Sequence record: PZ502447.1
Origin: a phage
DNA length: 46,837 bases
Direction: 5' to 3' (one strand)
Part shown: positions 8,301 to 35,640 of the stretch, in pieces
Layout: each line of letters begins with the position of its first letter
How positions within the stretch are numbered: the stretch's first letter is position 1
Made by a program: the position numbers and the translations under genes
The notes under the pieces: generated by a model
Told to the model about the DNA's origin: nothing
Database searches by the model: none
Seen by the model: the letters and a program-made list of their open reading frames with translations, nothing else

Positions 8301-8347
8301 ACTATAAGCCATCCTTGGCGGCGCGTCTTTAGCAAAACGTGCTATTT
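8301..8347 (-). promoter_or_regulatory. conserved promoter module (inverted-repeat motif plus -10-like TATAGT)
   Basis: Minus-strand AATAGCACGTTTTGCTAAAGAC, then about 22 nt, then TTATAGT, then leader ACGAAAACGAGAGG, then ATG of 7919..8272; overlaps the terminase large subunit stop. Confidence 0.5.
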
Positions 8348-9913
8348 GATGCCAGCGAGGCGCATCATCCTCGATTTAGGGTCTTCTGCAATGTTCAGTA
8401 CCAGGTTGACAGCCATTGTCAAACAGTCTATCTGGTCATCGTGAACATGTGAATCATCTGCCGTGAATGCCGCAATCTCCGTTAGCAAGCCATTAAGCCA
8501 AGTAGCAGACTCCGGAAGGATTACGTTACCAGCTTTAATCTGCGGCAATGCACTCATTACGCGAGTCAGCTTATCGTTATCCGGAACGTACGGCTCGATA
8601 GGCGTTCGCATAACCCTTCCGGCTGATTGAATCAGGCCAATACCAGAGGCTTTCTTCTCGATGATGATTTTACGAAGGATGCCATCTATCTGATTGGATG
8701 CCCTAGCCATCTTCTCGAAATCCAATAACTCAGCCTCTAGCTCAGGCGCTTCCCATTTACCACGGCGCTGGTCCAACAGGTAAATTTTACCATCCTTATA
8801 GCCCCAGAGTTGCAATACGCTAAAGTCACTGTATGACTTTGTTGTCATTGCGGTATCAAGTGTCATGAATCTGTAGTCGTATTTAGCTGGCGGTCGCAGG
8901 GTGTCACTAATGCGCTGGAACCAGTCTACGTTAATCAGGTTGCCGCCTAGGGCTATTGGCTGTTGAAGGTATTGACTAAGAAACGTGTATGGGTCGGCGT
9001 CCTTCATTGCCATCAAGTCGTGAACTGATTCCTTTGCTGGGAAGTAGCTGTAATACTTCACGCCGTCACGCTCAATGTATTCGCTTGATAGAACGTCATC
9101 AATGAATTGCTGCTTAATCCAGTCAGGAAGAGTGTCGACATAATCCTCAGTAACGAGTGCTGGAACCTTAACTACGTCAAACTTAATCCCCATACCGCCG
9201 GATTCCATAAAATTGCTGGTATCAAGAACGTGCAACCTCTGCTGAACGGCGATAATTGGTGTTTCATGCCCCTTAACGGAACTTGCTCTACGTGAGCGAA
9301 TCGTGTTCTTTAGAAGCATATTAACAGCCTCCCTCCTTACATTACTAAGCGCATCATCTGGCTTCAGCGGGTCATCAAGCATTATGCATCCACTGTAATC
9401 ATCGGTCATGTAACCACCACGTGAACCAGTCACCTGGCCAGCCATTGCCTTAGATATCGATTCAAACCTCACCTTTCCATCTTCATCTAGAACCTGAATT
9501 TCGTCATCCCTACATGTGCCAAACTTGCAAGGCCATAACTCCTGAAACTCCTTTGACTTAATGAGGTCGCGTACTCTCTTTGAGTTTCGCTTAACCAATG
9601 AGTCAGAGAACGACAAACTAAGGTTTCTAACCTTCTTAATCTTGATCATGCTATATACAGGGAAATGTATGCTAAAGAGTTCGGTTTTGGCTGATCCAGG
9701 AGCTACGTTTATGATGGTATCCTTTCTCTTACCCTCAAGAATCTCATCTATGACACGACAAAGGTATTTAGCATGCCAATTCATTTTGAATCTCTCGCCT
9801 TGCGTTATCTGAAAGAAGCACCGCAAGAACCCTTCGAAACTATGCTCAGCGATTGCCTTTATAGCCATCTTTTCAGCGTGAGTTAGTTCATCCCAGACTA
9901 TTAATTCACTCAT
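8342..9913 (-). CDS. terL: terminase large subunit
   Basis: 523 aa; Walker A-like VAPGSAKT near the N-terminus; ATG start 2 nt after the upstream HNH stop; followed by the portal block. Confidence 0.85.
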   Translation of the reverse strand: MSELIVWDELTHAEKMAIKAIAEHSFEGFLRCFFQITQGERFKMNWHAKYLCRVIDEILEGKRKDTIINVAPGSAKTELFSIHFPVYSMIKIKKVRNLSLSFSDSLVKRNSKRVRDLIKSKEFQELWPCKFGTCRDDEIQVLDEDGKVRFESISKAMAGQVTGSRGGYMTDDYSGCIMLDDPLKPDDALSNVRREAVNMLLKNTIRSRRASSVKGHETPIIAVQQRLHVLDTSNFMESGGMGIKFDVVKVPALVTEDYVDTLPDWIKQQFIDDVLSSEYIERDGVKYYSYFPAKESVHDLMAMKDADPYTFLSQYLQQPIALGGNLINVDWFQRISDTLRPPAKYDYRFMTLDTAMTTKSYSDFSVLQLWGYKDGKIYLLDQRRGKWEAPELEAELLDFEKMARASNQIDGILRKIIIEKKASGIGLIQSAGRVMRTPIEPYVPDNDKLTRVMSALPQIKAGNVILPESATWLNGLLTEIAAFTADDSHVHDDQIDCLTMAVNLVLNIAEDPKSRMMRLAGIK

Positions 9914-9915
9914 TG

Positions 9916-10422
9916 TTACGCTCTCGTATTTGGGTAGCCTTTATTTTCAGAGCCATGATTTTCATGATATCCGTTCAATTTGTCATACTGTGACCTTGCC
10001 AATGCAGCCTCCTCTATAGTGTCCTTGTAGCATATGAAGACTGTTTTACCAAACTCCATAGCCTGAACAAGCCATCTATTCTCTCTTTTGCACCAGCTTA
10101 CACCGTTTATTCCGCTTTTATTTCTTGATGATAGTGATCTGTTATTTGAGTTCTCTTTATTGCTTACTAACCTTAGGTTCTCTATTCTATTGTCACTTCT
10201 ATTTTGGTTTATGTGATCTATGTACATGCCTTTAGGGATTGATCCATTGTGCATCTCCCACACCACCCTGTGACACCTGTATGCTTTTTGTCTATACTTT
10301 AGTATCACATAGCCAAATTTATCAACTCTTCCAGCCACCTCTCCAACCTTTGATACATTTGCTACTTTTACCTTTCTTATTAAAAGCCCGTCTCTATATT
10401 CAAAAATATCATGCCAATTCAT
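9916..10422 (-). CDS. HNH homing endonuclease (AP2-HNH type)
   Basis: 168 aa; HNH core IDHINQNRSDNRIENLR; N-terminus MNWHDIFEYRDG shared with the HNH at 28006; strongly AT-rich; inserted between the terminase subunit genes. Confidence 0.85.
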   Translation of the reverse strand: MNWHDIFEYRDGLLIRKVKVANVSKVGEVAGRVDKFGYVILKYRQKAYRCHRVVWEMHNGSIPKGMYIDHINQNRSDNRIENLRLVSNKENSNNRSLSSRNKSGINGVSWCKRENRWLVQAMEFGKTVFICYKDTIEEAALARSQYDKLNGYHENHGSENKGYPNTRA

Positions 10423-10618
10423 ATCGTCACCTCGTTAAGTTAGTGCCAATTATCTCATTGATTGGGCCGATTCCTTTAACAAAAAGTGCTAAATTAGCCA
10501 TAATTTCACCAATCCAACCATCACGCCAATTAAGAATCCAGTTGTGAAGCACATTGACGCTATCATGTAATATCCCAATAAAGCCTTAATAACTTTTATC
10601 ATACCGACCCCTATGTTC

Positions 10619-11143
10619 TTACAGCTTACCAATCACAGACTCAAGCGCTTCCTTCATCGTATCTACGTCGTTAGCTGAAGAGTTGTTGCTGATAGTAATC
10701 TCCTGCGGCTTGTCGATTCCAAGCTCTTTGGAAATCATGCCCGGGTTAACGATGCCAGATGCAGCCAACTGATATTTCTGCTCACGAATCACTGAATCAA
10801 TGAACGCAATCACCTCATCATAACCAGCAGACTTTCGCCATTTCTCGATGGCGCCATGGGTAACACCGCAGTAAAGGCAGAAACCTGTTAGCGTGAAGAC
10901 TCGCGGCTTATGCACCAGGCTCTCGGTCACTACACCCTGGAAGCTAGCCGTCTCAATTGCCTTGATCGCCTGACTCTCTGCCCATGAGAAGTATTTCACA
11001 GCCAGGTCAAATAGCTGCTCTGGTGTCATGATTCGGTTTTTGGCTAGCGTTGTAATGTCTGAGTACTTTTTATTGTACATGGCTTTAAAGTTGCCAGAGC
11101 GGACCTTTTCTTGCGCCTGACTGGTGAAGTTTTCGTCTTTCAT
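10619..11143 (-). CDS. terS: terminase small subunit
   Basis: 174 aa, ATG with GGAGG SD; helix-turn-helix-like segment FTLTGFCLYCGVTHGAIEKW resembling small-terminase DNA-binding domains; located upstream of the terminase large subunit. Confidence 0.6.
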   Translation of the reverse strand: MKDENFTSQAQEKVRSGNFKAMYNKKYSDITTLAKNRIMTPEQLFDLAVKYFSWAESQAIKAIETASFQGVVTESLVHKPRVFTLTGFCLYCGVTHGAIEKWRKSAGYDEVIAFIDSVIREQKYQLAASGIVNPGMISKELGIDKPQEITISNNSSANDVDTMKEALESVIGKL

Positions 11144-11190
11144 TTTGTTACCTCCTTTGTTTAGAGATGCATTATATCATATAGCAAACG

Positions 11191-11214
11191 AAAAAAAGCC
11201 CTCAAGAAGAGGGC
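11191..11214 (-). terminator. intrinsic terminator separating early small-gene block from packaging genes
   Basis: Minus-strand hairpin GCCCUC-loop-GAGGGC followed by a U7 run (plus-strand A-run 11191-11197). Confidence 0.55.
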
Positions 11215-11267
11215 GAAGTATCGAACAACAACGAGAGATATGAAACAAACAGAGAGTAGAACTTCTT

Positions 11268-12473: not shown

Positions 12474-12687
12474 TCTCATCATGACCCACACGCCCTCGAC
12501 GATAGCCCGCTATCCACACAAACTTATCACGTGCGATTATCGTGGATACCGGCCCCCATATCTGAGTGATAAGCGCCGCAACAACCTTATCATCTTTCTT
12601 TTTTGCGCCCAATTTGCCGTATTCGTCATTCAGCTTGTCAGCCTGTCGCTTAACTGCGTTAAAGTATGCGTCGTCTAACCCGAACAT
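12451..12687 (-). CDS. hypothetical protein
   Basis: 78 aa ORF, ATG with GAGAGG SD located in a conserved leader downstream of a promoter module. Confidence 0.5.
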   Translation of the reverse strand: MFGLDDAYFNAVKRQADKLNDEYGKLGAKKKDDKVVAALITQIWGPVSTIIARDKFVWIAGYRRGRVGHDENGNSLYE

Positions 12688-12743
12688 TTTCTAACCTCTC
12701 GCTGTTTGATATATAAATTATATGGCATCCATGCCTTTGGTGT

Positions 12744-12884
12744 TTAGCTATTCGTGCTGTTTATTTTATCTTCACGCTCCTTCCATAGATTCATCAGCTC
12801 GAAGTACATCATGGCAACCTCGCCAGTCTTAGCCTCATCCATCATCCGTTTAGCCCACTGGCTTGGTGTTTCGTAGTTATCCAT
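12744..12884 (-). CDS. hypothetical small protein (46 aa)
   Basis: Hand-translated ORF MDNYETPSQWAKRMMDEAKTGEVAMMYFELMNLWKEREDKINSTNS; start overlaps the upstream stop (TAATG). Confidence 0.35.
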   Translation of the reverse strand: MDNYETPSQWAKRMMDEAKTGEVAMMYFELMNLWKEREDKINSTNS

Positions 12885-13208: not shown

Positions 13209-13631
13209 TCAGATTTTGTTAATTTGCTCAAACTTCTCAAACCAGAAAACAACTGGATCCTCCACTATGGAGATGAGGCCGAACCGCTCTGCCGTGCGAA
13301 AATTCATGCTGCTCTTACGCCCGCGAGCGACTTGAAGAGACACCTGTTCCCTGAACATTTCAAGGGAATAGCAAGTTTTCATGAGGTTGCATGGAGCACA
13401 TGCAGGGTAAAGGTTTTCCATTCGATCAGCTTGTGGTCGATTAAACTCACCTGTCGCCTTCAGCTTGAAAGTTCCTTTCTCCGCTGCCTTCATGCATACC
13501 TCAGATTTACGTAGCACCGGTTCAACATGGTCAGCATGCCAGCCTTTCTCAGGTAGTTCACACCCACAATAAGCGCAGCGACCACCGAACTTGCCCTTCA
13601 ACTCTTCCCTTTGAGATTTGCTTAATTTCAT
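13209..13631 (-). CDS. HNH endonuclease (classic zinc-finger HNH)
   Basis: 140 aa; CAYCGC...HADHVEP...CAPCN motif arrangement of the HNH fold. Confidence 0.75.
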   Translation of the reverse strand: MKLSKSQREELKGKFGGRCAYCGCELPEKGWHADHVEPVLRKSEVCMKAAEKGTFKLKATGEFNRPQADRMENLYPACAPCNLMKTCYSLEMFREQVSLQVARGRKSSMNFRTAERFGLISIVEDPVVFWFEKFEQINKI

Positions 13632-13821: not shown

Positions 13822-13896
13822 CGTCAATTCCTCATCTCGTTTTGATGGGATAAGTATAACAACCTATCCCAATTCATGTTTATCAATTCGTGCTAT

Positions 13897-14040
13897 TTAT
13901 AATTCTTCAACTACTTCGCATCGATGCACGGCACCACCAAGAACATCCATCTGAGCTTTTGCTTCCTTGTAGGATTCATAAACTCGCACGTGCTTAACGC
14001 TGTTAAACTTACCTGTATAGTACGTGTGAACGTAAATCAT
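13897..14040 (-). CDS. hypothetical small protein (47 aa)
   Basis: Hand-translated ORF MIYVHTYYTGKFNSVKHVRVYESYKEAKAQMDVLGGAVHRCEVVEEL; start overlaps the upstream stop. Confidence 0.35.
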   Translation of the reverse strand: MIYVHTYYTGKFNSVKHVRVYESYKEAKAQMDVLGGAVHRCEVVEEL

Positions 14041-14446: not shown

Positions 14447-14673
14447 TTCGTTTGTTCCAGGTAAGTTTTCATCTTGTTCAGTGAGTCTATTGCGTCATCA
14501 AGGTCTGTGATAACATCCTTGTGACCTCGTAAACCCATGCAGAGCAGCTTTTTGATTGCATGCTGACATGCTGGGTCTGTAACGTTGAACGCTGATAGCG
14601 TGCGATACACATCAACAACAGCCCGCTCGCCATTAAGCCCAGTAATCTCTCTTTCATATTTGTTCCTATCCAT
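14443..14673 (-). CDS. hypothetical protein
   Basis: 76 aa ORF downstream of a promoter module at 14731-14751. Confidence 0.45.
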   Translation of the reverse strand: MDRNKYEREITGLNGERAVVDVYRTLSAFNVTDPACQHAIKKLLCMGLRGHKDVITDLDDAIDSLNKMKTYLEQTK

Positions 14674-14749
14674 CCCACCCTCTCTTGCTTTGCTTTAATA
14701 AGGCCACTATATCAAATTGCCTTGCGGAAGGTTTAACAATTTGTGCTAT

Positions 14750-14935
14750 TCAAAACTTAACATCAATTATGACTTCAACCATCTCCTGCCCAAGCCGGTA
14801 GGAGTCGCCCCAAAGAAGTAGTCCCATAAACTCATCCTTACTAAAAGTGTTGGCATTTACAGTTCTAAGATAGCCACGATGGATAACAGTATCGCCAATC
14901 TTAACTTCGCTCTTATGTACCATTTTAGTTTTCAT
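14750..14935 (-). CDS. hypothetical protein
   Basis: 61 aa ORF in the leftward early block. Confidence 0.4.
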   Translation of the reverse strand: MKTKMVHKSEVKIGDTVIHRGYLRTVNANTFSKDEFMGLLLWGDSYRLGQEMVEVIIDVKF

Positions 14936-14990: not shown

Positions 14991-15179
14991 TCAGTAGCAG
15001 GTAGCCAGGAAGTCGGCGATACCTTTTGAGGTTGCTTCCGGCATACTACGTACTGCAACATCGTAACCAGCCTCAACCTTTGCAATCGCTGACTCTTCGT
15101 TGTATCCGAACATTGTCAGGATGGTGATTACGTTTTCTTTATTCAGGACTTTAAGTTCTTTAGTGATGCGCTTAGCCAT
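14991..15179 (-). CDS. hypothetical protein
   Basis: 62 aa ORF downstream of a promoter module at 15247-15265. Confidence 0.45.
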   Translation of the reverse strand: MAKRITKELKVLNKENVITILTMFGYNEESAIAKVEAGYDVAVRSMPEATSKGIADFLATCY

Positions 15180-15362
15180 TTTCGTTTTCCTTTGTGCCTC
15201 TCGTTTCGATGAGGTAATTATGCCATCCTTGGCGTCATATCGTTAGGCAAAAAGTGCTATTTCCCACTCAGTAGTAATTTAGCTTTCCGATATAAATCCA
15301 TAGCCACCTCAACCTCATCCTCACTGTACCGCGGATGGTATGGTAGTCTACTACCATACCCA

Positions 15363-16483: not shown

Positions 16484-16556
16484 AATAGCACTTTTTGCTA
16501 ATGACAAAAACTGGCGACGAGGCCATAATGAATCCATCAACAACGAGGAGAGAGAT
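16484..16556 (+). promoter_or_regulatory. conserved promoter module for rightward early operon
   Basis: AATAGCACTTTTTGCTAATGAC, then CATAAT, then leader CCATCAACAACGAGGAGAGAG, then ATG at 16557. Confidence 0.55.
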
Positions 16557-16742
16557 ATGAAACTTAAAGACGAAGCATTTGAGCAATTAAAGCAGGAATG
16601 TGCGCTGATTGGATTGAACAGTGACTATACTGATATGGTTTTACGCGGACGCATCGATATCGACCTTGCTAAGCAATTCCAGTCAGATGATGAATATCTG
16701 TGCTGCGATGGCCTCGGCTGCGACGAATGTTTACCATGGTAA
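16557..16742 (+). CDS. hypothetical protein (Cys-rich C-terminus)
   Basis: 61 aa, ATG with GGAGAGAG SD; C-terminal CCDGLGCDEC cluster suggests a metal-binding mini-domain. Confidence 0.5.
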   Translation: MKLKDEAFEQLKQECALIGLNSDYTDMVLRGRIDIDLAKQFQSDDEYLCCDGLGCDECLPW

Positions 16743-17150: not shown

Positions 17151-17314
17151 TGCTTTTACCATCTGAGATAAACTATTTCGATCTGGAAATAATTAGTGCT
17201 TACAGCGGAAAGGGTTGGCCTTGCGGGGACTGGTTTAACGAGGACCTGCTTGAGTCTCACGAGATTATGTTGAAGGCAATTGAGAAGGCCAGAAAAAATA
17301 GCACTAATTGCTAA
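17150..17314 (+). CDS. hypothetical small protein (54 aa)
   Basis: Hand-translated ORF MLLPSEINYFDLEIISAYSGKGWPCGDWFNEDLLESHEIMLKAIEKARKNSTNC; its stop lies inside the promoter motif. Confidence 0.35.
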   Translation: MLLPSEINYFDLEIISAYSGKGWPCGDWFNEDLLESHEIMLKAIEKARKNSTNC

Positions 17315-17373
17315 AACTCACCGCCACGGATGGCGTATATTTACTCCATCGAAACGAAAGAGAGCAAGAGATC
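17297..17373 (+). promoter_or_regulatory. conserved promoter module
   Basis: AATAGCACTAATTGCTAAAAC, 22 nt, TATATT, then leader CCATCGAAACGAAAGAGAG, then ATG at 17374. Confidence 0.55.
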
Positions 17374-17535
17374 ATGTTCGACAACTTTTATGACGAGATG
17401 GAAGAGGCGGTTCTCAGGGCGTCGCTAGATGGTAAGATTTACGGTTTAGTTCAGAAGTTTGATAAGATTGTTGTGCGTATTGTGCGCAAATCAGTACCAA
17501 ACAAATTCATGTGGACAACTAAGAGATTAAAATAA
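17374..17535 (+). CDS. hypothetical protein
   Basis: 53 aa; the ORF-track start at 17308 is a TTG inside the promoter motif, so start moved to the first ATG after the conserved leader. Confidence 0.45.
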   Translation: MFDNFYDEMEEAVLRASLDGKIYGLVQKFDKIVVRIVRKSVPNKFMWTTKRLK

Positions 17536-17924: not shown

Positions 17925-18091
17925 AATTATACATTGTAAGTGGTTGCACACACTATGATGGAAGCGAAGTGATTGCCGCTTTCGATGAAGAATTCAAAGC
18001 ACAGGAGTTTAAATATAACAAAGAAATATCTTCAGAAAATCACTTTGACTACTACAAGATAGATTGCATCTTACTAAATAGCACTAATTGA
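17921..18091 (+). CDS. hypothetical small protein (56 aa)
   Basis: Hand-translated ORF MKLYIVSGCTHYDGSEVIAAFDEEFKAQEFKYNKEISSENHFDYYKIDCILLNSTN; stop lies inside the promoter motif. Confidence 0.35.
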   Translation: MKLYIVSGCTHYDGSEVIAAFDEEFKAQEFKYNKEISSENHFDYYKIDCILLNSTN

Positions 18092-18150
18092 TAATGCATT
18101 ATAAGCGGCTATTGATATAATGGCCGCTCATAACAACACGGAGAGAAGTA
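18077..18150 (+). promoter_or_regulatory. conserved promoter module
   Basis: AATAGCACTAATTGATAATGC, then TATAAT, then leader CTCATAACAACACGGAGAGAAG, then ATG at 18151. Confidence 0.55.
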
Positions 18151-21298: not shown

Positions 21299-21469
21299 AT
21301 CTGCGATAATAAATTCCACCAAAGAGCCATCAATCGGCGCAAGGATGTGAGTCATATCGTCACCGTAAACTTTGTAGTAACCGTCACCTAGAGACTCTGC
21401 GCTGTACGGCTGGTTTTCGGTGAACGGCAGTGTCTTTGAGTTGTTTTTAACGCAGTATAATTTAGTCAT
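21299..21469 (-). CDS. hypothetical small protein (57 aa)
   Basis: Hand-translated ORF MTKLYCVKNNSKTLPFTENQPYSAESLGDGYYKVYGDDMTHILAPIDGSLVEFIIAD with AGAGGA SD; lies between a promoter module and a terminator. Confidence 0.45.
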
Positions 21470-21540
21470 TTTTGAATCCTCTGTTGTTTTCGATGTAGTA
21501 ATTATGCCGGATTACTCCGGCGATTGTTTAGCAATTCGTG
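21470..21540 (-). promoter_or_regulatory. conserved promoter module
   Basis: Minus-strand AATAGCACGAATTGCTAAAC, then CATAAT, then leader CATCGAAAACAACAGAGGA, then ATG of 21299..21469. Confidence 0.55.
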
Positions 21541-22088
21541 CTATTTATTACGTGCATTACCAAAGCAGAGGTTCCATCAATATCACCATCTACAACATGA
21601 ACGTCAATTTCTCTTGCGCAGACACCGCGAATGTAGGAGCGGCTATCTCCATCAAAAGTATAGCCAGGCCTAAAAAGTCTAATCAAAGTAACTTCAACCC
21701 CTGAATCAATGAGAGTATTAATCTCGCTAGCGAAGCCACCATCAGCACAGATATAGCAACCATCACCAAGTGATTGCGCTAGCCTTTTACCGAAAACATC
21801 ATCACCAAAGACTGGCTTCATAACTGACTCACTAATCCAAATCATAAATTCACGAACCGTCATTCCACCAAGAAATTCATGTGGTGATTCTTTGTACTCT
21901 CGGTCATCGTAATTCTTAATAAATTCATCAAACTCATCGCTTGATAGTATTCCTTTTGCAACATTAAACATTGGTGACTTGAATGAAACCTTATCCTTGC
22001 AAATTCCAAGATTAACAATGATATCTGCAACTGTATCTTTTCCAGCACCAGGGGGTGCATTAAGGATGATTAACTTTTTCATTTTCAC
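21528..22088 (-). CDS. deoxynucleoside monophosphate kinase-like P-loop kinase
   Basis: 186 aa; P-loop NAPPGAGKDT and overall resemblance to T4 gp1 dNMP kinase (GKDT..AD, RPG motifs). Could alternatively be a polynucleotide kinase domain. Confidence 0.55.
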   Translation of the reverse strand: MKMKKLIILNAPPGAGKDTVADIIVNLGICKDKVSFKSPMFNVAKGILSSDEFDEFIKNYDDREYKESPHEFLGGMTVREFMIWISESVMKPVFGDDVFGKRLAQSLGDGCYICADGGFASEINTLIDSGVEVTLIRLFRPGYTFDGDSRSYIRGVCAREIDVHVVDGDIDGTSALVMHVINSTNC

Positions 22089-22558: not shown

Positions 22559-22632
22559 TACAACTCCTCATCTCGTTATCGTTTATTCATTTTGCCTCAA
22601 TCCTTTGAGGCTTTATTAACAAAAAGTGCTAC

Positions 22633-23769
22633 TTAGAACATCTCAGGGCGACAAATAAATCGACCAACCTCACCAAAACGCTTATGGTAAACGATTACCG
22701 CTGCTTGACGCATTGAGCGCCATCCTCCATTAGCTGAATAGGCATCTGGCGCGCCAAGCTGACCATGAACTTCATCGATACCCAGGTTTGTTTCTGTAAT
22801 TTTCTGACTATGCCAGTGGCCCGAGTGTGTATAGACATATTCGCTGTTACCGAATAGTTTACGAAAGTCTGTAGCCATTACTGTAAGTCGAGTTTCAGCT
22901 TTTCGCATCTGGTGACCATGAGTATAACCAATCAATGTTGAGCCGAAGCTTGTCATCAGCATTGCTGCTGGGCTTACGTCGACAGTAATTCGCTCCTCGT
23001 CTTCATAGAATGCCGCCAATGCTGCACGCAACCAAACCATCCCAGCTTCGTCGTGATTTCCACTTATTACTTTAATATCAATGATTTGGTGCTTCTCAAG
23101 CATCCTTGAAACCGCACGACGCACTGAGCGGATTGCTACGTAAACCAATTTAGCATAGCGACTGTCGCTGTCTAAGATATGTCCTGATGCTGGTGTTTTA
23201 GCCTCTAGAGAGTCGTAATGCAGAAAATCACCCCCCAAAACTAATGTCGCATTTCTTGATTTAGGAGCCTTATCTACAGCATAATCAAAGAAGCTATTCA
23301 TTACCTTCTCTGCTGTTGCAGTGTCGTAGTTTTCACCGCACTCATGCTTATGAGCCATTGCGCCAATGTGAAGGTCGAAAACCGGATACATAGCCATCGT
23401 GTCATCATCAAAATCAATGTCTGGGCACTCACTGGCAACTGCCTTTGGTAAGTCAGAACAAAATGCCTCTCGTGCTTGCTCAAGCAGAATCTCAAGGCGC
23501 TCATTATCAATTGAAGTCTTAACCCAACGCAGCTTCTCATTCCCATCCGCATCAATCATGGTCGAAGTGCCTTTTACCAAGTATCCGTCCGGTACTAGCT
23601 TCTTAATGCCTTCGTTACCATGCCCGAACAAACCACTCTTAGCCAACTTACTGCGACGAATCTCAACGTTACGAATGTTCATACCATACTTCTCTGCAAT
23701 CGCCTTGTTAGTAAGGCCGTTTTTCAGTTCTTCGATCAATTGCTCGTTGGTAATCTTTGCTGCTGCCAT
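22633..23769 (-). CDS. calcineurin-like metallophosphoesterase with N-terminal HTH domain
   Basis: 378 aa; GDFLHYD, GNHDE and GHWH metallophosphoesterase motifs; N-terminal 50 aa resemble a sigma region-4/LuxR-type HTH (LTNKAIAEKYGMNIRNVEIRR). Confidence 0.6.
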   Translation of the reverse strand: MAAAKITNEQLIEELKNGLTNKAIAEKYGMNIRNVEIRRSKLAKSGLFGHGNEGIKKLVPDGYLVKGTSTMIDADGNEKLRWVKTSIDNERLEILLEQAREAFCSDLPKAVASECPDIDFDDDTMAMYPVFDLHIGAMAHKHECGENYDTATAEKVMNSFFDYAVDKAPKSRNATLVLGGDFLHYDSLEAKTPASGHILDSDSRYAKLVYVAIRSVRRAVSRMLEKHQIIDIKVISGNHDEAGMVWLRAALAAFYEDEERITVDVSPAAMLMTSFGSTLIGYTHGHQMRKAETRLTVMATDFRKLFGNSEYVYTHSGHWHSQKITETNLGIDEVHGQLGAPDAYSANGGWRSMRQAAVIVYHKRFGEVGRFICRPEMF

Positions 23770-23850: not shown

Positions 23851-24102
23851 TCATTCAACCTCTTTTAACCAGAAATCCAACAAATCAGCACTAATTGCTA
23901 ATTTTTGGTCCATGTCTGTCATGCACAGATTACCGCACGCTGGAGAGTAGTAAATCTGTACCCATTTACCGTCCTTCGTCTTCGCGTTAACATCCACATA
24001 GTCAGGTGGAAACCAGTCATCAATAGGTATCGCTCTAAACCTGGCTCCGCTACTACCATGCACTAAATCATAATGCTTTGGCTGGAAATCTAATCCAAAC
24101 AT
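23851..24102 (-). CDS. hypothetical protein
   Basis: 83 aa ORF in the leftward middle operon. Confidence 0.4.
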   Translation of the reverse strand: MFGLDFQPKHYDLVHGSSGARFRAIPIDDWFPPDYVDVNAKTKDGKWVQIYYSPACGNLCMTDMDQKLAISADLLDFWLKEVE

Positions 24103-24695: not shown

Positions 24696-24890
24696 TTATA
24701 CCTCATCAAATTTTTCGCCGAATTCGTTTTTAACAGTTTCCAGATCATATTTGTAAGTTGGGCTAACTTCGAATGCATATGTGCAGTCTTCAATGTCAAC
24801 CAAAACATAACCATCTTCAGTTACTTGCATCTCGTAGATGTAGCCAGTCTTGCGTGATTCGTAGAATTTACCAGTATAGATAGTAGCCAT
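24696..24890 (-). CDS. hypothetical protein
   Basis: 64 aa ORF directly downstream of a full promoter module and conserved leader. Confidence 0.5.
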   Translation of the reverse strand: MATIYTGKFYESRKTGYIYEMQVTEDGYVLVDIEDCTYAFEVSPTYKYDLETVKNEFGEKFDEV

Positions 24891-24974
24891 TTTCTTTCTC
24901 TCTTTGTGTGTTTCGTTTCGATGAGTTTATAATACACCAACTCACCAATTCGTCTTTAGCAATTCGTGCTATTT
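24891..24974 (-). promoter_or_regulatory. conserved promoter module
   Basis: Minus-strand AATAGCACGAATTGCTAAAGAC, 22 nt, TATTAT, then leader CATCGAAACGAAACACACAAAGAGAG, then ATG at 24890. Confidence 0.55.
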
Positions 24975-25388
24975 TCTTATCATCTCTGCGAATGCCGCAA
25001 GAAAACCCTCTCTTCCATAAGCCACCGCTGCGAAACCGCCTGATTCCCTTACGCTTTTTAGGAATGACTTTTGCTCATTGCTAACTGGGCTTGCTTGCGT
25101 TTTACCAGCCCTCTTTAACTCTATGGCGCCAAATGGATAACCGCCACGCAATGACTCAGGTATCAGAAATAAGCAGTCTGACACACCTTTGAGAAGCCCC
25201 TTGGCTTGGTCTTTTCTTGCTTGACCAATGCTCTTTTTATTTTCGTTAATCGTGTGCCAGTAAACAATCTGCGGATAGTTGTATTTCACCCAATCAGAGC
25301 AGAAGATTTGTTCATCGTCTTCCTTTGGGCATGACTTCACCGGTCCGCCATAGAACTCGAGGTAATCACCTTTGTCTGTGATTTTCAT
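24969..25388 (-). CDS. VRR-NUC domain nuclease
   Basis: 139 aa; PD-(D/E)XK-like core DCLFLIP...GAIELKRAGK...Q typical of VRR-NUC proteins; immediately downstream of the helicase gene, a common phage pairing. Confidence 0.55.
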   Translation of the reverse strand: MKITDKGDYLEFYGGPVKSCPKEDDEQIFCSDWVKYNYPQIVYWHTINENKKSIGQARKDQAKGLLKGVSDCLFLIPESLRGGYPFGAIELKRAGKTQASPVSNEQKSFLKSVRESGGFAAVAYGREGFLAAFAEMIRK

Positions 25389-25389
25389 A

Positions 25390-27384
25390 TCAATCCTCCA
25401 TCGTAAATGATTTGTTGGCGATAATATCTTGCGACTTCTGATTCTTGCGGTGCGTAATCCTTAGCGGCGCACGGAAAAGATGTGCATTTGTCATAATCAT
25501 TTTAGCATTACGCAATCTGCCAATCCTAAAAGCCTCAGTACTGTTCTCGATGTGAGTTGAGCAAAACGCCTTCCATTTGACAGAACAAACACGATGGTCT
25601 GACTCCGGGAAGAATGTTTCATAAGCTCGGAACTTATCTCCACTATGAGCCATTACCTCATATGAAGCAACGATCCCTGACTGGTTTTTTGTCAACCCAA
25701 TCTTGAAGTCATAAACTCTCAACCAGTCCCCTTTCCGATACATTTTTCCAGATAGCTTTGCATTTGGGTCTATCAGCATCTCTCCGCAGCAGCGGCAGTT
25801 CTTTGCTGCAACGTCATTTTTCTCTCCGCAACCTTTCTTAATGATAACTTTCGTCTGCGGGTCCTCAATATCTTCGCAAAGACGGAACTGAAAAAAATGC
25901 TCGCATCGTTTACCGTCAATCACATTATTACAGCGCCGTGCGAAAGGAGAATTCTCATAAGAACATGCTGGGCAAATTCTTGGTTCATCACCCCCTTTCC
26001 TGGATGACTTAAACTTCTGGTCCTGAACCTCTTCTATAATTGGGTCGAAGTAGAGTTCTGCCATATCGTCAAGCGTCCCGGCAAAATCAAGAACAACGTG
26101 GTCCTCTTTTATCATTCCAGCTTCTTTGTGCTTCTTCTTAAGAATTCGCATACCGCGACCAAGCAACTGAATGAGCAACGTTATGCTGCCAACCTTCCTT
26201 AGGATAATGCTTGTATCCCACGGCGGCACGTTGACGCCCGTTGTGAGGCAACCAATCTGAAATATGAATTTATATTCTCCATTTGCCGCCTTATCAAGTA
26301 TCTCTCTGCGTTTTTTTTCACCAGTGGAGTCAGTAACTATCGCCCACGTCACACCATCTGGTAGCGCTGCCGCCGCCTCTTCACAATGCTGCTTTCCGGC
26401 GCAGGTTACCAATGCCGCATTCCTTGTTTCCATGAATTTAGCAGCAAAGCCCATTATCTTTTGGGTCATGGTCTGGTTTTCATGAATCTTCGCAGCCATA
26501 GCGTCCATTTCTTTTTTACTGAAGTCTTTAACTCCATCACTTCCATCTGGAGCAAACTCGCTAAGGTCATAACCCAAATCACCAACCTCGCCGTAAACGG
26601 TCGGAACCACGAACCCCAAGTCAACCAGGTAACTGGTTGGTACTTGCATTACCGTTTTACGCCAGAAACCACGAACATTCGGATTGCTAACTACAATGTG
26701 GTCATTGTTCCGGTAAGGGCTACCAGTTAAACCGAAGATGCGTAGCTCTCGACCATACTTCTCTTTGCAGCGTCTCTTCATCTCAGTAATGATTAGCGTG
26801 TACTGCGCACGACCAGTTCCGAGCAATCCGGTATTCACTCCATCCTTGAAAACCATCTCACCCTTCTTCGTGCTCATCTGCTCGAATGTTTCCTCGTTCT
26901 CTTCAGCTTCTACGATATCCATATGGTCAACCATATGACATTCATCTATCGCAATAACGGCAGGAACATAGTCACCAAGGCCCTTAAACAAGCCGTTAGC
27001 AGCTGTGCCCTCACTAGCCACTATGGTTGGGTAGTAAACTGATTTAACGTTAAGGCCAGCGCAATAGACGCTATTACGGATGCCGAAGTTACGAAGCTCT
27101 TCAGCGTTCTGGCTGATAATTTCTGACTGGCGAGAAAGCACCATGTAAGGAAGCCCAAGCTGTTCCATTCGTTTCCCAATCATGGCGAGTATAATTGTCT
27201 TACCAGCAGACACCGACAGGTCTGCGATGAATGGTGCTTCATACTTGCCAATGGCCTTGCCAATAGCGTCAAATGTCACGCACTGGAATTCGTAAGGCGT
27301 TATGTCTCCAAACTGGTAATCTTTCTGAATCTGTTTAATTTTCTCTTTATCAAAGTTGGCTACTAAGCGCTCTACTGGAAGCAT
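25390..27384 (-). CDS. ATP-dependent SF2 helicase (DExH box) with C-terminal Cys-rich zinc-ribbon region
   Basis: 664 aa; Walker A SVSAGKT, DExH box AIDECH, C-terminal CPAC...C..C and C.CCG clusters. Confidence 0.75.
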   Translation of the reverse strand: MLPVERLVANFDKEKIKQIQKDYQFGDITPYEFQCVTFDAIGKAIGKYEAPFIADLSVSAGKTIILAMIGKRMEQLGLPYMVLSRQSEIISQNAEELRNFGIRNSVYCAGLNVKSVYYPTIVASEGTAANGLFKGLGDYVPAVIAIDECHMVDHMDIVEAEENEETFEQMSTKKGEMVFKDGVNTGLLGTGRAQYTLIITEMKRRCKEKYGRELRIFGLTGSPYRNNDHIVVSNPNVRGFWRKTVMQVPTSYLVDLGFVVPTVYGEVGDLGYDLSEFAPDGSDGVKDFSKKEMDAMAAKIHENQTMTQKIMGFAAKFMETRNAALVTCAGKQHCEEAAAALPDGVTWAIVTDSTGEKKRREILDKAANGEYKFIFQIGCLTTGVNVPPWDTSIILRKVGSITLLIQLLGRGMRILKKKHKEAGMIKEDHVVLDFAGTLDDMAELYFDPIIEEVQDQKFKSSRKGGDEPRICPACSYENSPFARRCNNVIDGKRCEHFFQFRLCEDIEDPQTKVIIKKGCGEKNDVAAKNCRCCGEMLIDPNAKLSGKMYRKGDWLRVYDFKIGLTKNQSGIVASYEVMAHSGDKFRAYETFFPESDHRVCSVKWKAFCSTHIENSTEAFRIGRLRNAKMIMTNAHLFRAPLRITHRKNQKSQDIIANKSFTMED

Positions 27385-27473
27385 TTTAAATATCCCGACA
27401 GTTTGTTAGTTCGTTGCATTGCTGTATAATAACAATTATCGAACCTATTGTTTAACAAAAAATGCTATTGAGG
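27385..27473 (-). promoter_or_regulatory. variant promoter module in divergent region
   Basis: Minus-strand AATAGCATTTTTTGTTAAAC, about 21 nt, TATTATAC, then leader to helicase ATG at 27384; the plus-strand gene at 27481 starts 8 nt beyond the motif. Confidence 0.4.
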
Positions 27474-27480
27474 TAATGAG

Positions 27481-27954
27481 ATGTGTGAAATTGACAAGCG
27501 AACTATCAACGGCAATAACGGAACCATCCGCACGCAAGACAAGAAACAGCGCAAACGACCGTCAGGCTACTACGTATTGAAAGATGAAGTAAAGGCTGGG
27601 CTACGAGCTCGTCTGGAGATGGTTCTTGATTTCTACGGCACGAAGGCCAATATCGCCAAGCAGTTAAATGTATCTCACCAGACTGTAGAGCAATGGTTTG
27701 ATCGCGGGATGATTTCGGCTCGAGGTGCCCAGAGGGCTCACAATGCATACAAGCGAAATAAGGAAGGCTTTAGAGCTACGTTCTGCCGACCAGACCTGCA
27801 ATTCGACGGAAACGGTAAGCCATTAACGCTTAGATGCAAGAAACGCCATATGCTGCGGGTTGTTACAGAAGCTGAACTAGCAACAAAGCCACCATGTCGA
27901 CCATGGCGCAAGAATAAGATTGCCAACGAAGCAGCACGAAAAGCTAAAGATTAA
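27481..27954 (+). CDS. HTH DNA-binding protein (putative transcriptional regulator)
   Basis: 157 aa, ATG with GAGGTAA SD; helix-turn-helix-like segment TKANIAKQLNVSHQTVEQWFDRG; basic N- and C-termini. Confidence 0.5.
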   Translation: MCEIDKRTINGNNGTIRTQDKKQRKRPSGYYVLKDEVKAGLRARLEMVLDFYGTKANIAKQLNVSHQTVEQWFDRGMISARGAQRAHNAYKRNKEGFRATFCRPDLQFDGNGKPLTLRCKKRHMLRVVTEAELATKPPCRPWRKNKIANEAARKAKD

Positions 27955-28005
27955 ATAATTGGATGTGCCATAATCGGTACATCCTTTTTTATTGGGGAGA
28001 AGAAA

Positions 28006-28485
28006 ATGAACTGGCATGATTATTTTTACTATGTAGATGGCAAATTGCATTGGAAGATTAGCACTGCAAGACGTGTTAAGGTTGGCGATGAGTGCAACTC
28101 ACTATCTACATCTGGCTATTACAAAGTGTCTGTTAATGGCTTTAGGACTTATGTACATAGAGTTGTGTGGGAGATGTTTAATGGAGAACTTCAAAATGGC
28201 GACTACATTGATCATATAAACCATAACAAATTAGATAACAGAATAGAAAACCTAAGAGTAACAACAAATCAAGGTAACTCAAGAAATTGCAAGCTTAGCG
28301 TTTTATCAACAACTGGTTATTGTGGAGTAGCAAAGCTAAATCACGGAAAATTTAAGGCTCACATCAAGGTTGACGGTAAGCAGCTACACCTTGGGAACTT
28401 CGATACTCCAGAGCAGGCGTATAAAGTAAGAATTGAAGCAGAGAGAAAATGCAACTTTCACGAAAATCACGGGTTAAGCAAATGA
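28006..28485 (+). CDS. HNH homing endonuclease (AP2-HNH type)
   Basis: 159 aa; IDHINHNKLDNRIENLR HNH core; N-terminus MNWHDYFYYVDGKLHWK paralogous to the HNH at 9916; inserted directly upstream of primase with an ATGA overlap. Confidence 0.85.
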   Translation: MNWHDYFYYVDGKLHWKISTARRVKVGDECNSLSTSGYYKVSVNGFRTYVHRVVWEMFNGELQNGDYIDHINHNKLDNRIENLRVTTNQGNSRNCKLSVLSTTGYCGVAKLNHGKFKAHIKVDGKQLHLGNFDTPEQAYKVRIEAERKCNFHENHGLSK

Positions 28486-29426: not shown

Positions 29427-29492
29427 ATACCTGAAAGATGATACAATCCACTTTAGCAATTAGTGCTACTTTACAAATGGAGACTTTACACA

Positions 29493-32051: not shown

Positions 32052-32537
32052 TCAGTAGTAAAGATGTTCCGCTTGCTTTCTTGCCTTTAATGCGGACTCA
32101 AACGTTTCGAATCGTCCTAGATGTATTTTTCTACCGTTTACAGTTATGGACGCATCGTATTTTCCCTTATTAAAATGTACACCACCGCACCCCGTCTTAT
32201 TGTTTACTCTTACACCTAAATTGTGCATGTTGCCTGTTCTGTTGGTTTTCAGTAGGTTTGCGTAGGCATTATTTGCTCTATTCCTGTCAATATGGTCAAT
32301 TTCAATATCACCACTCAAAGAACCTTCAACGAAGGCAACCGCAAGCCTGTGAGCTTGGAATCGCTCTCCGTTGATGTTTATGCCTATGTATCCATTCCTA
32401 AGCGAACCTGAATTCGAACCTACATCTACACGCCGCGATGTGGGAATAATCCATGAAAAGATCCCTGATTCTGTACCGTAGGATAGGTGACGCATTGCTG
32501 CGTCAACCACATCTTTTGTTATGTCTTTGTATTTCAT
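32052..32537 (-). CDS. HNH homing endonuclease
   Basis: 161 aa; IDHIDRNRANN HNH core and NKTGCGGVHFNKGKYDASITVNGRKIHLGRFETFESA AP2-like tail. Confidence 0.8.
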   Translation of the reverse strand: MKYKDITKDVVDAAMRHLSYGTESGIFSWIIPTSRRVDVGSNSGSLRNGYIGININGERFQAHRLAVAFVEGSLSGDIEIDHIDRNRANNAYANLLKTNRTGNMHNLGVRVNNKTGCGGVHFNKGKYDASITVNGRKIHLGRFETFESALKARKQAEHLYY

Positions 32538-32540
32538 GCG

Positions 32541-32969
<429 letters not shown>

Positions 32970-32981
32970 ATTATTTCTCTC

Positions 32982-32996: not shown

Positions 32997-33009
32997 AAGC
33001 CCCGTTAAA

Positions 33010-33660
33010 TTAGAATGTATCGATTTCTTGAGATTGCACTTCAACTTTTTCTTCTTGAACAGACTTTTGTGCAACCTGCTTAGGTTTTGCTGGGTTAAAG
33101 CCATTAGTTGCATTGGCCTGAATCTCTGCCTTGCGCTCGATAATGTGAGGCTCAAGCACTAACCAGCCGGCTGAATCAAGTGACTGCTTCGCCTCTTTGT
33201 AAACATCACGGAGGTCATCAAGAGTACTGCACTTAGCCAAGTCTTTCTTGAATGAGTTGATGCCTTTAACTGCTAACTGACCATCATCATCTGCCTGGCT
33301 TAAACCTAACGCCGCTGTGATTGCGTAACGGCGAGCGTATGTAAGTGATGACCCATAACCTTGAGCATCTTGCTTACTGATTGGGACTATGGTCAGGAAA
33401 CTAACCCACTCTCCAGATTCTGCATGGTAAACTGTTGTTTCAACCTTAATACGAGTGCTTACATCATCATCAATCATCGACTGAAACATCACCAGTCCGC
33501 TATCAGCCAATCCTGGCTCTACAGCTGCTAAAACATCATCTAAAGTAGCGTACTTATTCTTGAGGTGTGAGTTCTGCTTAGACTTTTCAGCCTTAGCAAA
33601 CTTTGATTTAGCCTCGAATAACGCCTTCAATACTTGCTTGTTTTGCTCAGAAGTTTTCAT
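33010..33660 (-). CDS. erf: Erf-family single-strand annealing protein
   Basis: About 216 aa from ATG MKTSEQ (GGGGA SD; the ORF-track start is a GTG inside the promoter -10). Erf-like core ATLDDVLAAVEPGLADSGL. Confidence 0.7.
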   Translation of the reverse strand: MKTSEQNKQVLKALFEAKSKFAKAEKSKQNSHLKNKYATLDDVLAAVEPGLADSGLVMFQSMIDDDVSTRIKVETTVYHAESGEWVSFLTIVPISKQDAQGYGSSLTYARRYAITAALGLSQADDDGQLAVKGINSFKKDLAKCSTLDDLRDVYKEAKQSLDSAGWLVLEPHIIERKAEIQANATNGFNPAKPKQVAQKSVQEEKVEVQSQEIDTF

Positions 33661-33737
33661 TCCCCATCTCTCTTTCGTTTCGATGGGGTAATGATACCCC
33701 ACCTGTTAATTTTGTCTTTAGCAATTAGTGCTATTTT
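33661..33737 (-). promoter_or_regulatory. conserved promoter module for recombination genes
   Basis: Minus-strand AATAGCACTAATTGCTAAAGAC, 22 nt, TATCAT, then leader CCCATCGAAACGAAAGAGAG, then ATG of erf; overlaps the exonuclease 3' end. Confidence 0.55.
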
Positions 33738-34702: not shown

Positions 34703-34705
34703 GGT

Positions 34706-34900
34706 TCAATCCTTAATTTTAACAATCTTAATAGCTTTCAAATCTTCTTCAGTGAAGTATCCTGTCAGCAACTCCTTGGCCTCTTCCTTTGTCTCGAATT
34801 GGTCGGCTTCAGATTTGTTGGTAGTGTATCCGGCTGGGCCACCAAAGTAGCAATCGCCGAACAGTGCGTTGTTTTTCTCTTTAATTATGAAGTATGGCAT
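34706..34900 (-). CDS. hypothetical protein
   Basis: 64 aa ORF upstream of the exonuclease gene. Confidence 0.4.
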   Translation of the reverse strand: MPYFIIKEKNNALFGDCYFGGPAGYTTNKSEADQFETKEEAKELLTGYFTEEDLKAIKIVKIKD

Positions 34901-34904
34901 GATT

Positions 34905-35090
34905 TTATCCCTTAATGACTTTGATGTGTTCTGATGTTGTCTTTTCTATCCTTGCGCCAGTTTTCTCCCATTGTTTACCGTATGATAATTCGCAAAATCT
35001 AAAAGCCATGTCATACGTAAGGAATATAGCGATAGGTGAATACGTTGGTAGTATTACTGTATGCGCTTTCAATTTATCAGGCATTTTCAT
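34905..35090 (-). CDS. hypothetical protein
   Basis: 61 aa ORF, first gene leftward from control region B; upstream CATCATT plus leader GCATCGAAAGAAAAC. Confidence 0.45.
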   Translation of the reverse strand: MKMPDKLKAHTVILPTYSPIAIFLTYDMAFRFCELSYGKQWEKTGARIEKTTSEHIKVIKG

Positions 35091-35222
35091 TACTCTATCT
35101 CTCTACGGTTGTTTTCTTTCGATGCGTTAATGATGCCGCACGCAAGACACACAGTCCAATTGGTATCACCGATTAATTAATCAAGTATACGCGTATAAAT
35201 CCGTAACTACGTGTAGACATTT

Positions 35223-35280
35223 CTATTGGTTACGTTTTTCACTGCCTTAGCCCAGCTATAGCTCAATGTAAATGGTGCGT
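35223..35280. repeat. duplicated control-region block 1 (copy B)
   Basis: ATTGGTTACGTTTTTCAC...GCCCAGCTATAGCT, matching 15975-16030 (the palindrome is partly degenerate here). Confidence 0.6.
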
Positions 35281-35403
35281 ATATCGTGTATACCGATCTT
35301 GGCGGATGGTGCATAGGTATGGGTGCCGCGCAATACTGTATAAAATCACATGATATAAAAATTATAACCGGAACACTCAAGAACAGTAGTTACATGATAT
35401 ACA

Positions 35404-35468
35404 CAGTAATATATATAATAATAATAATAAGAGTAAAAGGTTGATATATATAGATATTTTAATGTAAC
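35404..35468. repeat. duplicated control-region block 2 (copy B) with (TAA)n microsatellite
   Basis: ATATATAATAATAATAATAAGAGTAAAAGGTTGATATATATAGATATTTTAATGTAAC, matching 16146-16212. Confidence 0.6.
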
Positions 35469-35554
35469 TATGGCGTATCAAGGCGTAACTAGGCGTATAC
35501 GATTTCCCGCGGATGCATATGGTATACATCGAGTTACATCGGTTACGTGTAACC

Positions 35555-35640
35555 AATAGCACGAATAGCTAAAGACAAAGATTATAGATGATGTATGATT
35601 ACTCCATCGAAACGAAATGCTCATTATAAGGAACAAGAAA
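35555..35640 (+). promoter_or_regulatory. conserved promoter module for rightward lipoprotein operon
   Basis: AATAGCACGAATAGCTAAAGAC, 22 nt, TATGAT, then leader CCATCGAAACGAAA, then AAGGAA SD and ATG at 35641. Confidence 0.55.

Follow-up and report, generated by a model that had tools for sequence, protein, structure and literature searches.

The DNA analysed here (sequence record PZ502447.1, 46,837 nucleotides, hereafter the window, meaning this stretch at its full length) is a complete or nearly complete genome of a T1-like siphophage of the family Drexlerviridae, and a short repeated sequence, referred to as the box, recurs along it as the first element of a larger module. These modules are very probably activator-dependent promoters of class II geometry, and the protein reading the box might be a host activator of the MarA/SoxS/Rob family, a reading to which we assign a probability of roughly 0.55. 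The repeat as such is not new, because it has been described in the 2024 re-annotation of phage TLS, with mention of T1, Rtp and Rogue1 (PMC11447400), and the copies found in the window are a further instance of it. The new point is that, judged from its letters, the repeat has the sequence, the asymmetry, the orientation, the position and the context devoid of a -35 element of a class II marbox promoter, the marbox being the site bound by Escherichia coli MarA, SoxS and Rob.

According to the passages of the TLS paper cited here (PMC11447400), the TLS element is a 21-nt direct repeat present in 21 copies, with the consensus aaATAGCACnnnTTGnTAAAA, oriented with transcription, located about 76 nt ahead of start codons and divided into three subtypes by a central AAA, TTT or GAA. 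Its authors, who detected just three sigma-70-like promoters in that phage, did not settle what the repeat does and proposed a stoperator, an enhancer-binding site or an UP element; the same passages mention neither a fixed spacing to a -10 hexamer nor a match to the marbox. When the literature was searched for the exact motif strings, the TLS paper alone came up, and no transcriptome paper on the T1 family turned up in the literature search. The 2006 Rtp genome paper is said to have assigned ten inverted repeats of this kind to Rtp52, a putative regulator. The direct repeat of TLS and the inverted repeats of Rtp are the same element as the box of the window, sharing its consensus, a number of about 20 copies (19 in the window), the orientation, the central subtypes and a distance of about 75 nt to the start codons; in the four window modules for which it was computed, the distance from the start of the box to the start codon is 74-83 nt.

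The preliminary description of this DNA had proposed a genome-wide promoter module with at least 17 sites. A position weight matrix (PWM) scan of the circularised window disclosed 19 copies of AATAGCAC-N-AATTGCTAAAGAC, among which every coordinate of the earlier list was recovered, including the copy across the junction and an intragenic copy at 23884, with one additional site at 27930-27951(+). The 22-mer AATAGCACNAATTGCTAAAGAC, allowing up to three mismatches, gave 10 matches in the window vs 0.00 expected in shuffled sequences, so that the comparison with shuffled sequence suggested at the outset came out in favour of the motif. In 17 of the 19 cases the box is aimed at the adjacent downstream gene, and 17 of the 19 boxes are followed by a -10-like hexamer 16-18 nt past the 22-mer (at 17 nt in 14 cases, at 18 nt in two and at 16 nt in one), which is the same distance as the 22 nt from TTGCTA reported earlier. 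The layout shared by 17 of the 19 sites runs from the box to the -10-like hexamer, then to a conserved C-A-TCGAAACGA, and through a Shine-Dalgarno sequence to a start codon; the two exceptions, already recognised as such, are the copies at 29449-29470 and 23884-23905. The start codon, preceded by its Shine-Dalgarno sequence, lies 19-35 nt past the inferred transcription start, in agreement with the idea that the leader supplies the ribosome binding site. The leader CATCGAAACGA occurs six times in exact form, each time beginning 1 nt ahead of the inferred start; such a conserved start region is unusual for a sigma-70 promoter. The ends of upstream open reading frames (ORFs) inside the motif were also found again: the stop codon is a TAG at box positions 3-5 in seven cases, a TAA at positions 16-18 in three (C-termini NSTNC/NSTNS) and a TGA at positions 13-15 in one.

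The record closest to the window is Escherichia phage ES (91% identity over the 8 kb compared), and the window is also related to Rtp, CEB_EC3a, ACG-M12 and others, its gene order being that of the annotated relatives CEB_EC3a, Rtp and T1. A comparison with related genomes, likewise suggested in the preliminary description, revealed that the motif is kept: Rtp has 21 matches vs 1.5 expected, T1 has 21 vs 1.4 expected, CEB_EC3a has 19 with the same layout, and both the motif and the layout are present in Klebsiella phage 1513 and phage Vc1.

The geometry of the module was analysed by counting the gap between the 20-mer form of the box and the -10 hexamer at 133 box-like sites of six T1-like genomes, the window included. 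In the window, the 20-mer is followed by 18 bp and then the -10 in 14 of 17 modules; over the six genomes, 71 of the 133 sites have their best -10 at a gap of exactly 18 bp, 7 at 17 bp and 6 at 19 bp, while the random control shows no peak, with about 1% at each offset. A logo of 72 sites shows strong conservation at box positions 0-18 and then none until the -10, whose consensus is TATaaT; since the conservation ends at about box position 19, there is no -35 element. A two-hexamer sigma-70 scan disclosed no enrichment, with 48 sites vs 43.4 expected in shuffled sequences. With respect to the predicted starts, the centre of the box falls near -41, overlapping the position of the -35. The fixed gap of 18 bp and the absent -35 tie the box to initiation. 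The earlier proposal that TTGCTA is not itself the -35 is supported by these data, and the box does look like the site of a factor; the part of the proposal that placed this site just upstream of a weak -35 did not hold, because the box occupies the -35 position and no -35 is present.

This arrangement is that of the class II marbox promoters, in which the marbox is forward-oriented, overlaps the -35 and is centred near -41, the -10 is canonical, no -35 hexamer is recognisable, and sigma region 4 is driven off the -35 by Rob or SoxS (PMC12052159; PMC8811837; PMC10268841). At the class II promoter of E. coli micF, the marbox ACAGCACTGAATGTCAAAAC is followed by 18 bp and then by the -10 TAGAAT. 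The phage modules are thus like the class II MarA/SoxS/Rob/RamA promoters, of which micF is an example, in having a 20-bp asymmetric forward box that overlaps the -35, a centre at about -41, an 18-bp gap and no -35. They are unlike them in that some 17-20 near-identical, near-consensus copies would serve almost the whole genome of a virulent phage, on which the binding of a host protein is predicted, and they go beyond them in additional fixed positions, in a transcribed leader that is conserved and in a hairpin around the -10.

Two other explanations of the repeat can be confronted with the same geometry. The box might be a factor-independent element, for example one touched by the alpha C-terminal domain of the RNA polymerase in the manner of an UP element, or a substitute of the -35 of an unusual kind, as its location upstream of the -10 and its A-rich 5' flank might suggest; however, its invariant GCAC and TTG are not A/T tracts, its centre at -41 overlaps the -35 instead of covering -40 to -60, and the match to the marbox is far more specific, which makes such an element very improbable. 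The boxes might also be stoperator-like or roadblock repressor sites, as in mycobacteriophage L5, an explanation in keeping with their many copies, their orientation bias, their intergenic location and the existence of a few copies without a sense promoter (29449-29470 in the window; 15070 and 18834 in T1); the fixed 18 bp to the -10 and the absence of a -35 are at variance with it, the phage is a virulent one in which nothing like a repressor system is apparent, and we give it hardly any credit. The middle promoters of T4, dependent on the MotA box and AsiA, are another case of a lytic phage in which a box containing TGCT takes the place of the -35. The MotA box has its centre at -30 and is separated from the -10 by 11-13 bp, whereas in the window 22 bp lie between the TGCTA and the -10, and no Pfam MotA or AsiA family showed up in the scans of the window ORFs; identity with the MotA box was rejected on these two grounds.

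The sequence of the box leads to the same class of promoters. The marbox consensus of E. coli MarA/SoxS/Rob is the asymmetric AYnGCACnnWnnRYYAAAY (PMC3709825; PMC2064960), and a form derived from chromatin immunoprecipitation (ChIP) is GCAnnWWnTGnnAAA (PMC12052159). Read from its second base, the 22-mer (A-T-A-G-C-A-C-n-w-w-T-T-G-y-T-A-A-A) fits the marbox. The consensus AYnGCACnnWnnRYYAAA(Y), with zero mismatches, has 9 matches in the window vs 0.06 expected, eight of which are module boxes, and GCAnnWWnTGnnAAA has 11 exact matches vs 1.24 expected, ten of which are boxes. The marbox of the E. coli K-12 mar promoter, read as ATGCCACGTTTTGCTAAATC, shares 14 contiguous identical nucleotides with the box at 8325-8346. 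The sole exact marbox match outside the modules, 40287-40304(-), is ATGGCACAAATGGTCAAA, that is, the first 18 nt of the gene for a 1141-aa tail tip (J-like) protein, and it probably arises by chance.

In the logo of the 72 unique sites from the six genomes, every specified marbox position is matched except Y19, and the free or restricted positions of the box are those of the marbox (N8, W10 and Y14, plus a W at 9 as in the ChIP-derived form). The preliminary description had regarded the box as an imperfect inverted repeat. The dyad-symmetric conservation expected of a dimeric operator was not seen across the 72 sites: position 4 is G in 72/72, whereas at its partner, position 14, 49 sites have C and 20 have T; at position 7, 69 sites have C, and at its partner, position 11, 69 have T; position 1 is A and its partner position 17 is also A. 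The conservation is asymmetric and follows the degeneracy of the marbox, which argues against the dimer suggested by the inverted repeat, and the repeat within the box is probably incidental. A host Lrp site (consensus yAGhAwATTwTdCTr) might be invoked at this point, as TAGCA-N5-TGCTA fits all ten outer positions of that consensus (PMC5554404); the consensus is loose, with a chance of about 0.006 per half-site by our own estimate, the invariant C7 violates it, the conserved 3' AAA and the asymmetry remain unexplained by it, and a match to the marbox would be rarer by chance by several orders of magnitude. An Lrp site is highly improbable.

A reader encoded by the phage itself, the main rival of a host activator, deserves a wider discussion, and the features that it involves are the following.

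27481..27954, plus strand: regulator gene, whose 157-aa product is a Cro-like helix-turn-helix protein orthologous to Rtp52 and to T1 gp23 ("putative transcriptional regulator").
27403..27430, plus strand: regulator promoter, sigma-70 consensus-type TTGTTA-16-TATAAT, whose -10 overlaps the helicase -10 on the other strand.
27385..27469, minus strand: helicase module, with a weak GCAT variant box (AATAGCATTTTTTGTTAAACAA, 27448-27469), -10 TATTAT at 27426-27431, start at ~27419 and ATG at 27384.

The regulator has weak Pfam matches to P22_Cro and YdaS and PDB profile matches to Xfaso1 and P22 Cro; its AlphaFold model (mean pLDDT, the predicted local distance difference test, 88) has its best fold matches in the Xfaso1, N15 and P22 Cro proteins, and the predicted fold is a single small Cro-like helix-turn-helix domain. 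The regulator promoter ranks among the best-scoring two-hexamer sigma-70 matches of the 20 kb scanned, and in 6/6 genomes a weak GCAT box, which serves the divergent helicase promoter too, lies between this promoter and the start codon of the regulator. The two promoters stand back to back (27385-27480), with their -10 hexamers overlapping on opposite strands, which looks like a direction switch. Such an arrangement would suit a self-silencing master activator and, equally, a host activator shifting the polymerase from the regulator gene to the helicase gene. Another ORF, 24969-25388, was considered as a regulator and rejected, since it corresponds to a VRR-NUC nuclease.

The Cro-like protein might bind TAGCA-N5-TGCTA as a dimer at about -42 and be a master class II activator, which would be made first from its sigma-70 promoter, would then turn on the box promoters and would shut off its own. 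The strong sigma-70 match together with the box before the start codon would give autoregulation; in the GenBank record of Rtp, rtp52 is labelled a putative regulator, with a helix-turn-helix placed at residues 53-74; a 5-bp dyad does exist in the box; and the Mor protein of phage Mu binds 5-bp inverted repeats centred at -43.5 (PMC4390567). The same source describes Mor at Pm as acting from a site over the -35, at about -42, next to a poor -35, as in the window module. The sites of Mor and of lambda cI are true dyads bound by phage dimers, whereas in the window the conservation is asymmetric, matching a monomeric site for two helix-turn-helix motifs rather than a dyad, and the candidate has a variable recognition helix. 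As for lambda cI, it acts at PRM from a site over the -35, at about -42, and the -35 is poor. In the regulator family (29-76 homologs), helix 3 is hypervariable at three of its five canonical base-contact positions, with variants such as SHQTVEQW, SNQTVQGW, CCVRLTNAY and others, and the recognition helix was seen neither to be conserved nor to co-vary with the box, which stays the same in T1, Rtp, CEB_EC3a, Klebsiella phage 1513 and phage Vc1. The invariant parts of the family fall outside the helix-turn-helix, in an N-terminal arm predicted with low confidence (DKRTINGNNGTxRGxDKKxRKRP) and in a C-terminal block (GFRAxFCRPDLxFDxNGKP..C); their position outside the varying recognition helix suggests that the regulator has a conserved partner other than the operator.

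Further evidence comes from T4-like phages. The full T1-type module is also present in Straboviridae such as Lw1, RB16, RB43, KP27 and phages of Enterobacter, Cronobacter and Citrobacter. The complete genome of Lw1 contains three modules, at 10295(-), 10911(-) and 92339(-), all of them ahead of small ORFs whose identity with the T1-like counterparts is just 36-67%. A tblastn search for the regulator disclosed no homolog in this genome (best E-value 0.46, with positive controls from 1e-31 to 1e-108); the box is therefore not confined to genomes encoding the regulator. In two of the Lw1 copies a terminator hairpin is inserted between the box and the -10, bringing the gap to about 29 bp. A genome-wide use of the module in T4-like phages was rejected, Lw1 having just three copies, next to small ORFs in common with T1-like phages; the modules of the Lw1 type point, by comparison of these sequences, to an old exchange of cassettes in which the promoter was retained.

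The window was also searched for a phage-encoded protein of the AraC family. None is present among the 25 listed of the 55 Pfam families matched by its 83 ORFs, nor did any emerge from a scan of ten uncharacterised ORFs at E-values up to 1, and PDB sequence searches with the 129-aa and 111-aa candidates returned no AraC/MarA-like protein. The unchanged box, the variable helix 3, the absence of a detected AraC-family protein and the presence of modules in Lw1 without the regulator favour, taken together, a conserved host reader, and the Cro-like protein as the reader appears unlikely.

The host reading can therefore be spelled out as follows. Each module would be an activator-dependent sigma-70 promoter with class II architecture, in which the 20-bp asymmetric box (ATAGCAC-nww-TTGyTAAAnn) lies forward, in the place of the -35, with its centre near -41, followed by the 18-bp gap, a good -10 and a predicted start at the A of C-A-TCGAAACGA, and the transcript would begin with a short leader of 19-35 nt ending in the Shine-Dalgarno sequence. 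The box would be a near-consensus marbox, that is, a site for the monomeric activators with two helix-turn-helix motifs MarA, SoxS and Rob (RamA in Klebsiella and Salmonella), and a host protein of this family might bind it and recruit the E. coli RNA polymerase, replacing the recognition of the -35 as at micF. About 17 box promoters would in this way drive the replication/recombination, lysis, small-ORF and structural operons, and the gene of the Cro-like regulator would be read from its own sigma-70 consensus-type promoter, its weak leader box being held in common with the divergent helicase promoter. Rob is the constitutive member of the group, to which RamA is added in Klebsiella and Salmonella, and for this reason Rob would be the most likely candidate.

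Several observations weigh against a host reader of this family. In unstressed cells MarA and SoxS are present in low amounts, and Rob stays largely inactive until its induction. In the phage boxes, position 3 (A), position 11 (T) and position 15 (T) hardly vary, while the consensus leaves them free or loose, and the greater uniformity of the phage boxes with respect to the host marboxes could point to a different, more stringent reader. The regulator gene is present in 825/825 of the related phage records found, and its autoregulatory-looking organization, with a box in the leader, also fits a phage master activator. The modules of T4-like phages could have been carried along with transferred gene cassettes. 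Phage Vc1, which carries the box, is recorded on Vibrio cholerae. Moreover, the identity of the reader and the activation are proposed on the basis of the sequence, and the starts are predicted ones. With regard to Vc1, near-identical T1-like genomes have been deposited as Campylobacter phages (20 records) and as Pseudomonas phages, and the length of the PsgS01F record is exactly that of an E. coli phage record; since the host labels of T1-like records look unreliable, the Vibrio label of Vc1 also has to be taken with care.

A broader proposal can be advanced tentatively, as something possible that falls somewhat short of probable: the Drexlerviridae, together with some T4-like cassettes, might have no -35 recognition of their own and might entrust nearly all their transcription to host MarA/SoxS/Rob through about 20 marboxes per genome, which would couple it to bile, oxidative and drug stress, and the replicating phage DNA could titrate these regulators off the resistance genes. 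Annotators of T1-like phages find few recognisable promoters, and the class II marbox reading offers them a testable hypothesis on the binding protein and on the host mutant that would cripple the phage. If it is true, common coliphages and Klebsiella phages, many of which are candidates for therapy, would be linked to the multidrug-resistance regulators of their hosts; inducers such as bile salts, salicylate and redox drugs could modulate the growth of the phage; and a compact promoter cassette of about 75 bp with a predictable behaviour would become available.

The remaining modules and box copies of the window, with the genes that they precede, are listed below.

Junction module, minus strand: box 9..1 + 46837..46825, -10 TATAGT at 46802-46807, start at ~46795, leader CATCGAAACGA, ATG at 46768; found by the PWM scan.
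Gene of the junction module, minus strand: 82 aa, from ATG 46768, flanked by the gene of the major tail protein and those of the tail chaperones.
1..9, minus strand: 5' part of the junction module, comprising the initial 9 nt of the box (GATAGCACT); an intrinsic terminator (aaccctcttcggagggttttttatt) comes before the box, across the junction.
8273..8346, minus strand: module with box 8325-8346, -10 TATAGT at 8301-8306, start at ~8294 and ATG at 8272, ahead of a 117-aa gene and then the portal and head operon.
8342-9913: 523-aa ORF upstream of the module 8273..8346, terminase large subunit by synteny (Rtp and CEB_EC3a annotations), ending at the TAG in the box.
10423..10493, minus strand: module with a weaker box (TTTAGCACTTTTTGTTAAAGGA) found by the PWM scan, -10 GATAAT at 10449-10454, start at ~10442 and ATG at 10422, ahead of an HNH endonuclease gene and then the 523-aa ORF 8342-9913.
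12688..12761, minus strand: module with box 12740-12761, -10 TATAAT at 12717-12722, start at ~12710 and ATG at 12687 (78 aa).
13822..13897, minus strand: module with box 13876-13897, -10 TATACT at 13853-13858 and start at ~13846, ahead of a small ORF; a 7-bp hairpin (TGGGATA/TATCCCA) spans the -10.
14674..14750, minus strand: module with box 14729-14750, -10 TATAGT at 14706-14711, start at ~14699 and ATG at 14673 (76 aa).
15180..15261, minus strand: module with box 15240-15261 (TTGCCTAA variant), -10 CATAAT at 15217-15222, start at ~15210, exact leader and ATG at 15179 (62 aa).
16484..16556, plus strand: module with box 16484-16505, -10 CATAAT at 16524-16529, start at ~16536 and ATG at 16557 (61 aa).
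17297..17373, plus strand: module with box 17297-17318, spacer hairpin CGCCACGGATGGCG, -10 TATATT at 17336-17341, start at ~17348, exact leader and ATG at 17374.
18077..18150, plus strand: module with box 18077-18098, -10 TATAAT at 18116-18121, start at ~18128 and ATG at 18151 (527-aa DUF3987 protein); a hairpin (AGCGGC/GCCGCT) spans the -10.
21470..21545, minus strand: module with box 21524-21545, spacer hairpin GCCGGAGTAATCCGGC, -10 CATAAT at 21501-21506, start at ~21494 and ATG at 21469, ahead of a 57-aa gene and then the holin-endolysin-spanin region by synteny.
22559..22633, minus strand: weak module with box 22612-22633, a 7-bp spacer hairpin, -10 CAAAAT at 22589-22594, start at ~22582 and ATG at 22558 (polynucleotide kinase phosphatase domain).
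23884..23905, plus strand: box-like sequence within a coding region, on the strand opposite to the gene, without -10 or leader; probably not functional.
24891..24973, minus strand: module with a perfect 22-mer box at 24952-24973, -10 TATTAT at 24929-24934, start at ~24922, exact leader and ATG at 24890; the VRR-NUC gene upstream ends at the TAG within the box.
27930..28005, plus strand: module that overlaps the regulator gene at its 3' end, with box 27930-27951, -10 CATAAT at 27969-27974, start at ~27981 and ATG at 28006, ahead of an HNH endonuclease gene and then the primase gene.
27961-27984, plus strand: terminator hairpin of the module 27930..28005, followed by a T run, with the -10 CATAAT in its loop.
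29449..29470, minus strand: box directed away from both flanking genes (the primase gene and the following 852-aa ORF, annotated as tail fiber in relatives), beside a bidirectional terminator and without leader.
33661..33735, minus strand: module with a perfect 22-mer box at 33714-33735, -10 TATCAT at 33691-33696, start at ~33684, exact leader and ATG at 33660, with a hairpin (GGTGGGGTA/TACCCCATC) around the -10, ahead of the ERF recombinase gene and then the next two ORFs.
35555..35640, plus strand: module with box 35555-35576, -10 TATGAT at 35594-35599, start at ~35606, exact leader and ATG at 35641, ahead of a gene of a phage lipoprotein family and then that of a DUF6453 protein.

The position of the box at 29449-29470 is kept in CEB_EC3a, Rtp and T1. 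In T1, the boxes at 15070(-) and 18834(-) are, like that of the window, antisense to both neighbouring genes and located beside bidirectional terminators, and TAAGAT or TATACA follows them at 18 bp. These antisense-pointing boxes could drive short antisense RNAs or act as roadblocks.

The segment running from the end of the box to 12 nt past the -10 folds more stably than shuffled sequences in the 72 promoters (mean z -2.24, with z < -2 in 58% of them); the hairpin, whose sequence is variable, spans the -10 in 38 cases and lies within the spacer in 22. Examples in the window, in the approximately 38 nt past the box, are located at 33684-33712, 18106-18134, 21507-21522 and 17322-17335. The hairpin at 27961-27984, with its T run, is a true terminator having the -10 in its loop, and the spacer hairpin at 17322-17335, together with its T-rich -10, has been called terminator-like. 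Two of the window hairpins require G:U pairs (GGTG against CATC), which hints at a role at the RNA level in read-through transcripts, and the hairpins may attenuate or stabilise read-through transcripts from the upstream genes. The box itself was also considered as an RNA hairpin, an idea that was rejected on account of its 5-bp stem, its invariant sequence and the lack of covariation.

A second recurrent leader, CCAATCAGGAG, is located immediately ahead of start codons in Vc1, Klebsiella phage 1513 and T1. The 8-mer CTGATTGG has 20 copies in Vc1 and 15 in phage 1513, and ACCAGTCA has 17 in T1; this leader, distinct from CATCGAAACGA, represents a ribosome-binding-site context found throughout the family. 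Lastly, four or five HNH endonuclease genes are scattered in the window (9916-10422, 13209-13631, 28006-28485, 32052-32537), two of them being located directly downstream of box promoters.

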